A DNA stretch of 34,188 nt from a virus (lineage: Duplodnaviria > Caudoviricetes), in the IMG/VR virus record IMGVR_UViG_3300042191_000021, positions 1 through 34,188 of that record; one strand, 5' to 3'. Positions 5,588 to 29,469 of the stretch are shown here, in pieces (position 1 is the stretch's first letter; each line of letters starts with the position of its first letter). A model generated the notes under the pieces. That model ran no database searches. It saw only the letters and a program-made list of their open reading frames with translations, and was not told where the DNA came from. The position numbers and the translations under genes were made by a program.

Positions 5588-5988
5588 CCTATAGCGAGGC
5601 CGCTTACGCTCTCGGATTCGAGTTGTGCGCCCAAGAGATGTGCAACAAGAGCACACTCGACCATCGCAAGGGCACGCTGCGCGGCTCTACCCTGCATTGG
5701 ACCGACCGCCGCGTGACGAAGCCGGGACTGCGGCGCTTCCTGATGCTTGCGGCCAGCCACGATATCTACTCCGTGCCGCGCTGGGCGCTGATCTGGAATC
5801 GCAATGTATGGGTGGTGGCCGCCGCCGAGAAACTGCGTGTGCGGCTCCCGTCCCGTTACAGTGACGAAGACCGCGCGAAGGTAGCATGGGAGTTGCGCGA
5901 CACCCACGATCCGACCTACGAGCAGCAAGCCGCACTTCGTTGGGCGGGCCGCAGAAATAGACTTGCGCCCAGAATGAGCACTCGCTAG
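5584..5988 (+). CDS. hypothetical protein
   Basis: ATGA overlap; 134-aa ORF in the operon frame. Confidence 0.6.
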   Translation: MTYSEAAYALGFELCAQEMCNKSTLDHRKGTLRGSTLHWTDRRVTKPGLRRFLMLAASHDIYSVPRWALIWNRNVWVVAAAEKLRVRLPSRYSDEDRAKVAWELRDTHDPTYEQQAALRWAGRRNRLAPRMSTR

Positions 5989-5991
5989 GAT
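5963..5991 (+). promoter_or_regulatory. sigma70-type promoter upstream of the replication gene
   Basis: TTGCGC-17 nt-TAGGAT; same CTTGCGCCC context as the promoter at 1295. Confidence 0.65.
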
Positions 5992-5997
5992 GACCAC

Positions 5998-6164
5998 GAC
6001 GATTCTCGCGGCCCGTACCCGCTTGACTCGTTTGGCTCTAGCGAGCCGTGGTGCTGAGTCGGGCGGTAGCCAGTCCTGCCGCTCGACTCGCCCGAATTAT
6101 TCGCGGGTCGGGGAGACGCCTCCTACCGTTTCTCCGGCCCGCGACAGCCAGTAGGAGGGCATGT
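5998..6164 (+). promoter_or_regulatory. structured 5' leader, candidate cis-regulatory RNA
   Basis: 14-bp hairpin 6056-6089; 18-bp hairpin 6101-6144 whose loop CCTCCTAC is complementary to GTAGGAGG (6151-6158). Confidence 0.65.
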
Positions 6165-7091
6165 GTGGCAGAACGCAAACGACTCACCGGATTCATGTTG
6201 GCGGATGCGGCGTTTGCCGCAGACCCCAAGTTCTTACGCCTCGCCCGTAACTCTCCCACACCAGCCGCCTATGCCGCTGCCGTGGGTGTCTTCTGGTTGG
6301 TGTTGGCCGATGCCCGACGCGCCCGATCTCCCAATGTCAACTGGGATGACTACGAGGACTACGCTGAACAAATCACCATGCTCCAAGGGGTCAGATTGTT
6401 GACCAAAACCGGCTTTCAGGCGGTGCCTTTCGAGAAGTATGCCCCCGTCTACCAGTCTCCATTTGACCGAGAGCGTAGTAAGAAGAGTGGGTCACTACCA
6501 GACCATACACCAGACTACACAGAGATACACACCAGTACGCAAGATGACACTCACATAGGCTGGACTGGGCTGGACTCTTCTAAATCTCCTCTCCCCACGG
6601 AAGGGGGTGTGGGGGAAACCAATGGGCTTCCTTCCGAGAACGACTCTGCCACGCTCGCCTGTCGCATGATGTTCGATGGCGGCAAGTGGTTGGGGGATAG
6701 AGACTATGTTGCATCATGGGACAACATGGACCGTCGCTACACAGCAGGGTGGGTTCAAGAGGAGTTGCCTATCGCCTATGACCTCTGCCGTAAGGCACGA
6801 CAGGATGGCAGGGTTCTCCCCTATGACTTGCGCCGCATGACTGAATTGCAATGCGCCGAGAGAGTACGGGTCGAGGAGAAAGACCGTGAGCGTCTGCAAT
6901 CCCAACGCTTAGTCGCAGAAGAGGCAGAGCGTCGTCAAAAGACGACTTCAATGACAGATGAAGATCGAGAACGCCAAGCACTTTTCCGCAAAGCCACTCG
7001 CATTTGGACGAAGAGCGGCATGGTCGGAAATGTACCAGAAAAGATTGAAGAGTTGCGTTCGTGGGTCGCCGCTAATGAGAACCCAGCATGA
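6165..7091 (+). CDS. putative replication initiator (replisome organiser-type)
   Basis: Start moved to GTG 6165 (AGGAGG SD, 6-nt spacer). N-terminal D..F..DPKF..L, low-complexity middle with EGGVGE, internal DNA periodicity, and position before HNH/RusA genes. Confidence 0.65.
   Translation: MAERKRLTGFMLADAAFAADPKFLRLARNSPTPAAYAAAVGVFWLVLADARRARSPNVNWDDYEDYAEQITMLQGVRLLTKTGFQAVPFEKYAPVYQSPFDRERSKKSGSLPDHTPDYTEIHTSTQDDTHIGWTGLDSSKSPLPTEGGVGETNGLPSENDSATLACRMMFDGGKWLGDRDYVASWDNMDRRYTAGWVQEELPIAYDLCRKARQDGRVLPYDLRRMTELQCAERVRVEEKDRERLQSQRLVAEEAERRQKTTSMTDEDRERQALFRKATRIWTKSGMVGNVPEKIEELRSWVAANENPA
6496..6560 (+). repeat. 10-nt-periodic TACAC-type repeats, probable origin iterons
   Basis: TACCA/TACAC/TACAC/TACAC/TACGC/GACAC/TAGGC start at 6496, 6506, 6516, 6526, 6536, 6546, 6556. 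Confidence 0.6.
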
Positions 7092-7716: not shown

Positions 7717-8009
7717 TCGAACCGATAAAGGACGTGGTGTGGAGCGGCGAATTCACCATCCACGATCCATCTGACATGCTCCTGACATTCGATGAAGGAC
7801 GGCGGCTAGCCATCTATGCCGACAGGCCGATGATCTTCTTCCGGCGCTGGTTCTACGAACTGATGGTCGCGTTCTTCGGCTGGACTTACCCGCAGATCGT
7901 GGTGTGGAGCGGCGAGATTGGCCGCATCACCAAATTAGAAACCACTGAACTCGAAGACGGACGACATCGCGTCGAGTGGACTTCCCAAATCGAGAAGGTT
8001 GACCCATGA
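7713..8009 (+). CDS. hypothetical protein
   Basis: ATGA overlaps; internal VVWSGE duplication. Confidence 0.6.
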   Translation: MIEPIKDVVWSGEFTIHDPSDMLLTFDEGRRLAIYADRPMIFFRRWFYELMVAFFGWTYPQIVVWSGEIGRITKLETTELEDGRHRVEWTSQIEKVDP

Positions 8010-24525: not shown

Positions 24526-25421
24526 TAGGAGCCACCATAGACACTGAGGAAGCGATAGGGCTCAAGAAGGCTAGCGGCCTCATCTGGGATAGCGTCGTCG
24601 TCTCTGCCGCGAACCGGAGCACTGCGACTGATCTCCACCTCGGCCACCTTGATGCGACCTACCCCGACCATGCCTCTGGCCGCGAACCGAGACTCACCGA
24701 TCATGTGGGTTGCAATCGAGCCGGTCGCGCTGGCGATGGCATTCGGCAGGGTGTGGTTGTAATCCAGCGTCACGGTGTCAGTAGCGGCGGGCATGTCATC
24801 GAAGACAACGACGCCTTCGTTGTAATCGAGCGCAAAGCCGGTGGTTACTTCTGAGCCGTTGACATAGACGGTCGGTGTGACATCGGCATCCCACCATTGA
24901 TTCTGGGCGCGGAAGGTCTCACCGTCTGTATCGAGCAGTTCCTCGCCGACAATCGGGAAGGACCAACCGTAGGTGTAGTCCATCTGTCCGACCGGACGCG
25001 CCAGCCCGAGGTTTGGGATCAGGGCCGAGCCGAAGATGCCGACGCTGGTGACGGCCAGCGATACGACCTCAACGTAACCCTCTGAATGGTTGATGAATAG
25101 TTCGCTGGCAGCGATCCCGACATACTGCTGATTGGTAACGACCACGCGGAACTGGCTGATGGCCTTGATGGGGCGATGCCATGCGTAGAAGCGGCGCTGT
25201 CCTGCGACCAGATCGGAGCCCATCGCCCACGAGTGCTGCTCGCCGACCACTGTGCCGCCGCGAAAGTCATGTGGTTGCGGCAGATTGGGTACTGCACAGT
25301 AGGTATTCACCCGAGCCGACGCCCGAGCCAAGATGTTGCGAACCTCCACTTCCTCGAAGGCAGAGAGGTCCACTCCGAATCCCATGACCCGGAATGCTTC
25401 AGTGGTTAGGTAGTTCGGCAT
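24525..25421 (-). CDS. head-tail adaptor with inserted domains
   Basis: YLT...ILARASARVNTYC...P.AI..A...LLEPYR; unusually long at 298 aa. Confidence 0.8.
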   Translation of the reverse strand: MPNYLTTEAFRVMGFGVDLSAFEEVEVRNILARASARVNTYCAVPNLPQPHDFRGGTVVGEQHSWAMGSDLVAGQRRFYAWHRPIKAISQFRVVVTNQQYVGIAASELFINHSEGYVEVVSLAVTSVGIFGSALIPNLGLARPVGQMDYTYGWSFPIVGEELLDTDGETFRAQNQWWDADVTPTVYVNGSEVTTGFALDYNEGVVVFDDMPAATDTVTLDYNHTLPNAIASATGSIATHMIGESRFAARGMVGVGRIKVAEVEISRSAPVRGRDDDAIPDEAASLLEPYRFLSVYGGS

Positions 25422-25452
25422 TTACCCCTCCGGGTTATGCCCCTGTAGGTAG

Positions 25453-25511
25453 TGGGGAGCGGCGAGGGGTCGCGCCGCTCCCCAACTTACCCCTCGGGGA
25501 GAAACGAGGGG
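25453..25511 (-). promoter_or_regulatory. two tandem GC-rich hairpins with pyrimidine loops after the capsid gene
   Basis: 7-bp stem 25490-25511 and perfect 12-bp stem 25453-25484; both have 8-nt loops; no U tract. Confidence 0.6.
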
Positions 25512-28278: not shown

Positions 28279-29469
28279 TTAGGTTGACTGCTCGTGCAGT
28301 TCTAGCGCGATAGCCTCGAATCCGTCTGCGGCGGTGTCCCAACTGAAGGTCTTAGCGTGCCTGACGCCTGCCGCACTCAGTTTGCGGCGCTCGCCGCGAT
28401 TGTTATAGAGCCGTTCGATTGCGGCGCTGAAGGCTGGCACGTCTGCCGCCATCATGTCCTGCCCGCCCGGAGCCGTAACTTCGTATCCCGGCTCGATCAA
28501 GATGCCGCCCGGTCCCACAACCTCGGGAATGGCTGAGAAGTTCTGGGCGACCACCGGAACGCCGCACGCCGTAGCCTCTCCGATGGTCAGTCCCCAACCC
28601 TCGCCCTGACTGGTGGTTACGAACACATCTGCGGCGTTGTAGAGCGCCACCAAATCTGCGGTCGCCCATCCTTGGAAGGTGTTGTAGTCCTTTGGCAAGT
28701 GAAATCGGTCGAGGGTATCAGGATCACGGGTGAACAGGTCCGGCATCGAAACGCCGCCAGACTTGTCGTTGCCCTGACAATGGAAGTGGACATGAATGTC
28801 GGAGTGCTTATGCATGACCGGCACGAGCGCCTTCCAAGTGCTGGCGAAATCCTTGCGGCCACTGTTGCGATCTACTCGCAGAACGAGGAAGCCATTGGGG
28901 TCATAGCCGAACGCGCGCTTGGCATCCCGCTTATTAGTGATCTTGTGTCCCTGACTGGTGACGACTGGGTGCTCTGGCGATGCGGGATGGAAGGTATCGG
29001 TGTCGGTGCCGTGGTAGATCACTTCCGAACCGGGAATCTGATCCTGTCCGAACTTGCAGTAAGCGACTGGCCGAGACACCTTCGGAATGATGTCCCATAG
29101 TTTCGGCCCGTTCAGTCCATCGCGCGGCTGGTAGGTGATCAGCGGTCGATAACGCAGTAAGACTTTCTCACTATCCCACGGGTTCTCCATCAGCATGGTC
29201 AACATGATGAATGGATCATTCAAGATGATGACCACATCCGGCTCGACCTTGGATAGAACCTCTACGATCCGACTGTAGCCGTAGGTGTCGGTCGGTACTA
29301 ACAATGTTGGTACAAAGGCCCGCACGCCGGGGACGCCATCCTCGCCGCGATAGTTTGCTCCGAGAACGCTGACTTCATGTCCCTTGGCTACCAGTCGTGA
29401 AGTGATGGCGTGAGTGACGGTAGCGAACCCGGTTGTGGCTCCGTAGTCGCCGAGGAAAAGTATTCGCAA
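28279..29469 (-). CDS. GT-B fold glycosyltransferase, GT4 family
   Basis: MRILF...TGF; RNSGRK; YNAADVFV..S.GEGWGL...EA.ACGVPVV (E-x7-E motif). Confidence 0.92.
   Translation of the reverse strand: MRILFLGDYGATTGFATVTHAITSRLVAKGHEVSVLGANYRGEDGVPGVRAFVPTLLVPTDTYGYSRIVEVLSKVEPDVVIILNDPFIMLTMLMENPWDSEKVLLRYRPLITYQPRDGLNGPKLWDIIPKVSRPVAYCKFGQDQIPGSEVIYHGTDTDTFHPASPEHPVVTSQGHKITNKRDAKRAFGYDPNGFLVLRVDRNSGRKDFASTWKALVPVMHKHSDIHVHFHCQGNDKSGGVSMPDLFTRDPDTLDRFHLPKDYNTFQGWATADLVALYNAADVFVTTSQGEGWGLTIGEATACGVPVVAQNFSAIPEVVGPGGILIEPGYEVTAPGGQDMMAADVPAFSAAIERLYNNRGERRKLSAAGVRHAKTFSWDTAADGFEAIALELHEQST

Follow-up and report, generated by a model that had tools for sequence, protein, structure and literature searches.

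A conserved hairpin with an anti-Shine-Dalgarno loop before a likely replication-initiator gene in a virus of the Caudoviricetes

A hairpin that displays an anti-Shine-Dalgarno (anti-SD) loop precedes the gene of a likely replication initiator in a Caudoviricetes virus, and it is a real, conserved and uncatalogued element. Judged from sequence, it is likely an RNA switch that sets the amount of replication protein. The window, by which we mean the whole stretch of 34,188 nucleotides that was analysed, is a linear virus record that is about half complete. A preliminary description of this DNA had proposed an RNA switch. Its view of an RNA element directed at the SD of a likely replication gene is supported, and loop and SD covary in relatives. 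The upstream two-fold switch which it envisaged is not the conserved part. The element would represent a translational control RNA that is defined by its shape and by a loop tracking its own SD, and that members of a poorly known group of phages employ both at replication genes and at genes following the capsid gene.

The plus strand of the window carries early-type functions between 427 and 10673, assigned by likeness to an exonuclease, an Erf-like annealing protein, an HNH protein and RusA, and the minus-strand genes resemble head and tail genes. A glycosyltransferase (PHROG 2170, E 3e-29) is encoded within the head gene cluster, at 28279-29469 on the minus strand. The element lies in the gap that separates a 134-aa ORF, whose end is at 5988, from a 308-aa ORF that starts at 6165 (Table 1).

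Table 1. Positions of the leader elements, the downstream gene and the second element in the window.
Feature	Position	Strand	Basis and remarks
Likely sigma70-type promoter (TTGCGC, 17 nt, TAGGAT)	5963..5991	+	7/12 consensus matches; start site inferred at ~5998
54-codon open frame; begins 1 nt past the upstream stop, spans both hairpins, ends within the SD	5990..6154	+	sequence
5' leader module: small hairpin 6035-6048 and segment 6019-6030	5998..6054	+	one X4 contig; predicted transient pairing with 6055-6066
HP1, 14-bp hairpin	6056..6089	+	folding; 5' arm 6061-6069 stands where relatives have their SD copy
P2, 18-bp stem (-34 kcal/mol) with anti-SD loop 6119-6126	6101..6144	+	folding; long-stem counterparts in L002, L004, L005 and L006
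SD region GUAGGAGG (6151-6158) and GTG start (6165)	6151..6167	+	sequence; homolog alignment
Likely DnaD-like replication initiator; two helical domains (N and C) joined by a disordered linker	6165..7091	+	weak matches
Candidate origin iterons, imperfect repeats of 10-12 nt within the linker	6497..6541	+	sequence
Second element, gap between major head gene and next ORF	25421..25511	-	SD copy 25495-25489, stem 25483-25454, loop match 25470-25464, SD 25430-25424, ATG 25421

Every element named in the preliminary description was found at its given position. The stem of P2 (6101-6118/6127-6144) indeed has 18 contiguous pairs, 3 of them G-U, and its loop CCUCCUAC is, as first described, the exact complement of the SD letters. 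The loop is unpaired with a predicted probability of 1.0. Across the window the SD is its sole exact 8-nt target besides the loop's own opposite strand, and no further exact target stands ahead of any window gene. The segment 5998-6180 folds with a z of -5.2, a stability equalled by 0 of 200 shuffles. A detector requiring a stem of at least 12 bp and a loop complementary to the SD, written after the examples had been seen, returned 10 matches of at least 8 nt and 55 of at least 7 nt in 1,292 shuffled windows, and the real window gave 2; the chance rates are 0.008 and 0.043 matches per window at 8 and 7 nt, respectively. A plain nested hairpin between loop and SD, for which the stem would have to open, costs 8.9-27.9 kcal/mol across the loci, and thus the loop is displayed and its pairing must be tertiary or between molecules.

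The 308-aa ORF had been called a replication gene, and this is likely, the support being weak PHROG, fold and Atlas matches together with iterons in relatives; on the same grounds the protein is likely a replication initiator with an internal origin. The protein itself has no direct Pfam or PHROG match, and one of the 27 homologs scanned matches PHROG replication initiators (E 4.5e-4). Its structure model (pLDDT 84.8) has two helical domains joined by a disordered linker, and its weak fold matches include phage proteins of the DUF1376 and Lin1244-like kinds. The two DnaD domains, N and C, are matched in the correct order at Z 4.9-5.4, all below Z 8, and Foldseek against the PDB returned no match for the model. 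L002 and L004 have clear 10-bp tandem repeats at the linker position that corresponds to the repeats of the window. The start at 6165 is common to nearly all close homologs (one is called 10 residues further in), and R4, K5 and R6 are at least 90% conserved in an alignment of 44 rows, i.e., the protein and 43 homologs. An alternative start at 6048 was rejected, as the alignment rows shown begin in register with the GTG, and for this reason the leader does not code for the protein's N-terminus.

Ten loci of this rep family were compared, namely the window and nine that had been found by protein-based searches and not by RNA. A long stem whose loop is complementary over 8-11 nt to its own SD is clear in five of the ten, looser in one and absent from L003, L115, L116 and L117; in three of these four the upstream gene ends at most 7 nt from the start. 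The four clear relatives of the window (L002, L004, L005 and L006) have stems of 17-23 bp with loop-SD complements of 11, 8, 8 and 8 nt, and the looser form (L114) has a 9-nt match lying partly within the stem top. The letters of loop and SD vary from locus to locus (CCUCCUAC/GUAGGAGG, GAAUCAUCCUC/GAGGAUGAUUC, CUACUCCC/GGGAGUAG, CUUACUCC/GGAGUAAG and GCAACCCUC/GAGGGUUGC), giving five different pairs, each Watson-Crick over 8-11 nt; in CUUACUCC/GGAGUAAG one base has been added on both sides. When loops and SDs are swapped, a loop matches its own SD over 7-11 nt and a foreign one over 0-7, except among four loci with the common SD core GGAGUA, and about four letters of every match are SD core that is fixed by the ribosome anyway. 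By this comparison, loop and SD change together across the rep-family relatives. Within the stem, 4 of 19 pairs show two-sided changes among the three alignable leaders, a level that 9 of 500 shuffles reach over the whole structure, with little power to be had from three sequences. A conserved aptamer core was not found across the six leaders, which have 10 scattered invariant columns out of 135.

A second site recurs upstream. The four clear relatives carry a 5' copy of the SD, located 77-86 nt upstream of the SD and pairing over 8-11 nt with the loop. A TAnnnT hexamer starts 15-16 nt before this copy, and it is found at -104 to -113 in all four and is missing in the other five loci. Predicted energies of SD copy with loop are close to or above those of loop with SD in these four and in L014, a locus described below. 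The window has only an imperfect, buried copy (6061-6069, aligned to the relatives' site, 89 nt from the SD) and L114 has none. In the window this 5' arm of HP1, a hairpin that exists as previously reported, could pair with 6123-6131 (duplex -10.4 kcal/mol, three G-U pairs) and is predicted to be buried in HP1; forcing the pairing as a nested fold costs 25.9 kcal/mol. In L002 (4907-5004) the 5' copy is a near-repeat of the entire initiation region, and its GTG opens a short frame that ends in the 3' arm of the hairpin. Alternating CG runs lie just upstream of the -10 hexamer, at the expected place of a -35 box, in L005 (~345-360) and L006 (~110-125).

The candidate promoter of the window scores below the scanner threshold. 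One contig of another study (X4) matches 5962-6054 (93 nt) with 7 differences, its upstream DNA being unrelated, and another contig of that study keeps both promoter boxes 17 nt apart around an altered spacer; with this support from two contigs of one other study, the promoter is likely. The sequence CCGTACCC at 6011-6020 is identical to the iteron unit within the initiator genes of L002 and L004, the window's own repeats being different, and GTAC also occurs at the promoter of L002, L005 and L006; these may possibly be sites of initiator autoregulation. All six element loci have an open frame that crosses the stem and ends at -24 to +1, mostly begun at an upstream stop. Such frames by themselves turn up in 37-94% of shuffles and the coupling test also fired on unrelated frames, so that the leader frames are only suggestive. 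A conserved leader peptide was rejected, as neither the peptide nor the frame of the window and its counterparts is conserved.

We give an even chance to a reading in which P2 represses translation of the initiator in cis through a strained pseudoknot between loop and SD, which would form once 1-3 pairs at the base of the stem have frayed. The 6-nt linker had been thought too short for a simple pseudoknot, and with ideal A-form coordinates this is correct for the intact stem, which needs 59 Å where the reach is 42-49 Å; however, at full stretch 1-2 frayed pairs suffice. The intact stem is unspannable in six of the eight loci modelled, and L005 and L006, on their longest stems, need 4-5 frayed pairs. 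A rough energy balance, using fixed penalties and the same helix coordinates and ignoring linker stretching, gives -1.7 to -6.4 kcal/mol at two frayed pairs and -3.0 to +1.7 at three. In each of the six protein-found element loci, a small set in which three are close kin, loop and SD are 31-37 nt apart. This constancy is predicted by pairing in cis and not required by pairing in trans, and together with the energy balance it favours the cis knot.

Under the cis reading, a transcript from the promoter at 5963-5991 would have no ribosome traffic on its leader, the knot would form and the gene would be off. Relief could come by two routes. In the relatives the 5' SD copy, which is transcribed first, would take the loop and leave the gene on, a pairing that is possible with the stem intact because a linker of 13-24 nt exceeds the major-groove span. 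Alternatively, ribosomes entering from the upstream early genes would melt the stem and re-initiate. Since the SD copy of the window is buried in HP1, ribosome melting is the more likely route to the on state here. It was also observed that 6004-6022 is able to form three short helices with the 5' arm of P2, predicted to arise before the 3' arm is made, which might be a kinetic route to a nested off fold.

An unlikely reading, but one that deserves serious weight, is self-antisense action in trans, where the stiff stem bars the loop from its own SD, and the loops of leader RNAs that are short or have been processed pair instead with SD and SD copy on other transcripts, which would give immunity or copy-number feedback. 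The geometry of the intact stem, too short for cis pairing, is in its favour, and so is the presence of complementary sites both upstream and downstream of the loop in L002, L004, L005, L006 and L014 (the upstream site of the window being imperfect and buried), a layout like that of P4 (PMC4825925). SD copy and SD are moreover predicted in small hairpin loops suited to kissing in L004, L005 and L014, and in L014 a U6 run follows the stem directly. Yet the rep loci have no U run after the stem, neither C4/CI nor IsrK is matched in Rfam, and the constant loop-to-SD distance is left unexplained. For distinguishing cis from trans, the six loop/SD pairs found in nature could serve directly as swap controls. 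The cis case would make the element an unusually long-stemmed SD pseudoknot, and the trans case a one-strand form of antisense replication control. A related and rather doubtful idea is that of a protein-free copy counter: the stiff stem would block pairing with its own SD, the 5' SD copy would mask the loop in a lone transcript, and leaders would kiss and silence each other as their numbers rise. If this were true, initiator synthesis, and perhaps post-capsid stoichiometry, would be set by RNA-RNA handcuffing without an antisense gene.

The stem may also be read as a processing switch. The lambda N leader is an analogy for switching by RNase III, and processing steps are common at capsid genes. 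The 17-20 bp stem would here be a site for double-strand RNase, whose cleavage removes or frees the anti-SD loop, so that host RNase III sets initiator output. Long, nearly perfect stems are retained while their sequence drifts freely, and the same module stands after capsid genes, which speaks for this reading; the 5' SD copy, however, is not in itself needed, and we consider the reading improbable as a complete explanation. It can coexist with the cis knot, as its trigger.

Similarly improbable is the model of the preliminary description, in which 6019-6030 and 6079-6090 compete for the 5' arm of HP1 and thereby control access to the SD. The 11/12 repeat behind it is present and modestly unusual (26 of 1,000 shuffles), the 5' module is retained in one X4 contig, and as the chain grows the alternative stem is predicted to be the earlier of the two folds. 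It is predicted, however, only while the chain end lies at 6068-6084, gives way to HP1 once 6088 is reached and is 9.3 kcal/mol worse in the full leader. Against control of the SD by this switch, the alternative stem is predicted to leave P2 unchanged, and the four clear relatives showed nothing that corresponds to it. Two of the differences in the X4 contig also weaken the stem from -20.2 to -16.2, as computed against the partner arm of the window, the contig's own partner arm being outside the match. The repeated AGCCAGT (6068-6074 and 6146-6152), remarked on earlier, was rejected as a signal and is explained by chance, an exact 7-mer repeat arising in 660 of 1,000 shuffles. Finally, an ordinary terminator or stabilising hairpin with a functionless loop-SD match is very improbable: long GC hairpins are common between phage genes and one RNA-model match in a host genome was such a terminator, but the protein-found loci hold five different matching pairs, the 5' copies covary with them, and about 0.008 matches are expected per window by chance.

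Among known systems, SAM-II and preQ1-II riboswitches are SD-sequestering pseudoknots in which loop-SD pairing is the off state. Unlike them, the present element has no conserved core beyond the SD-linked letters, a far longer stem and no metabolic gene. In phage P4 the CI RNA pairs with upstream seqA and downstream seqC and halts expression of replication genes (PMC4825925, PMC3632133). P4 seqA/CI/seqC, P1 C4 and IsrK resemble the element in having a replication-gene leader and one RNA complementary to sites on both sides, a layout that the window itself shows only with an imperfect, buried upstream site, whereas the element is a single long hairpin of free sequence, with no C4/CI fold and no Rfam match, and is directed at the initiator's own SD. 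I-complex plasmids combine an antisense RNA with a leader peptide and a pseudoknot that activates, and in I-complex repY/repZ, as in R1 tap/repA, initiator translation depends on the loop of a hairpin, on a pseudoknot and on coupling with an ORF lying upstream (PMC8053102, PMC10724649). In the I-complex, the pseudoknot activates and an antisense RNA from the other strand blocks it, whereas here loop pairing would cover the SD. No SD-freeing pseudoknot of the repY/repZ kind was found, the downstream partner of the loop being the SD itself. Further differences from repY/repZ may be the non-conserved upstream peptide and the lack of an antisense promoter seen in the window: minus-strand TAnnnT is absent from +250 to -60 in the window and L004, and single, unaligned ones occur in L002, L005 and L006. 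The element would work like the P4 and I-complex controls and yet lacks defining features of each, namely a match to the C4 and IsrK covariance models and an SD-freeing pseudoknot, respectively. In its modelled mechanism it may be a variant form of known SD-masking controls.

Searches for known matches agree with the earlier remark that this is not recognisable as a known riboswitch, as Rfam gave no gathering-level match in the window. The best Rfam match to 5938-6168, the mgtE motif (RF04316), shows likeness at the promoter and at the SD/AUG end. It was rejected as an identity: it scores 18.1 bits (E 0.02), far below the gathering threshold of 200, the downstream gene is unrelated, and leaders of the relatives give no match to it. 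In the part of PMC11109978 covered, the motif is described from no place other than upstream of mgtE in Thioalkalivibrio, where a stem has the SD at its base. Other weak Rfam matches were likewise rejected. Covariance models of C4, c4-2, c4-a1b1 and IsrK gave no gathering-level match in the window and are not among the matches at E up to 10. Neither the protein, nor a distant homolog, nor the leader has a match in GenBank phages, and one 29-nt plasmid match was disregarded. Scans of viral contigs with the single protein and with the first alignment found no locus. Pattern scans of viral contigs gave the loop-display fold in 1/9 (L014), 1/12 (the same L014 contig) and 0/43 cases; the third held 0 clear cases among 42, with L031 borderline and judged a plain SD-covering stem. 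No description of the motif was found in the literature covered, including the available parts of PMC10690425, PMC5473149, PMC6524683 and bioRxiv 10.64898/2026.10.21.760802. Several supplements lay outside this scope, and of these the PMC11109978 supplement and some PMC10690425 files may bear on novelty.

The module is reused at other genes. On 212 kb of rep-family contigs with 1,995 SD-like starts, the detector returned 8 matches; six of them are the rep leaders, and the remaining two each follow immediately upon a major head gene. One of the latter is the second element of the window, and no relative was found for the protein downstream of it. A hairpin of 7 bp encloses its SD copy, and a TTG frame of 31 codons extends from the stops of the capsid gene as far as a TAA that immediately precedes the ATG. 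The other, in L125 (G305) on the minus strand past a major head gene ending at 7847, has a 17-bp stem, a loop that is the 9-nt complement of the next gene's SD, a 5-nt linker and no SD copy. A full three-site element, whose SD copy has its own ATG, also stands before an unrelated 69-aa Cys-containing ORF in L014 (431-545, minus strand), and the detector found one borderline site in 246 kb of pattern-matched loci from other viruses. An RNA model built from three leaders recovers L014 (E 6e-6) and did not find the window or L002 leaders; its match in one of 141 genomes was rejected as a terminator between convergent genes. The rep family occurs in 1 of 301 genomes of the phylum of L002, and one locus of the set belongs to a Coriobacteriia MAG.
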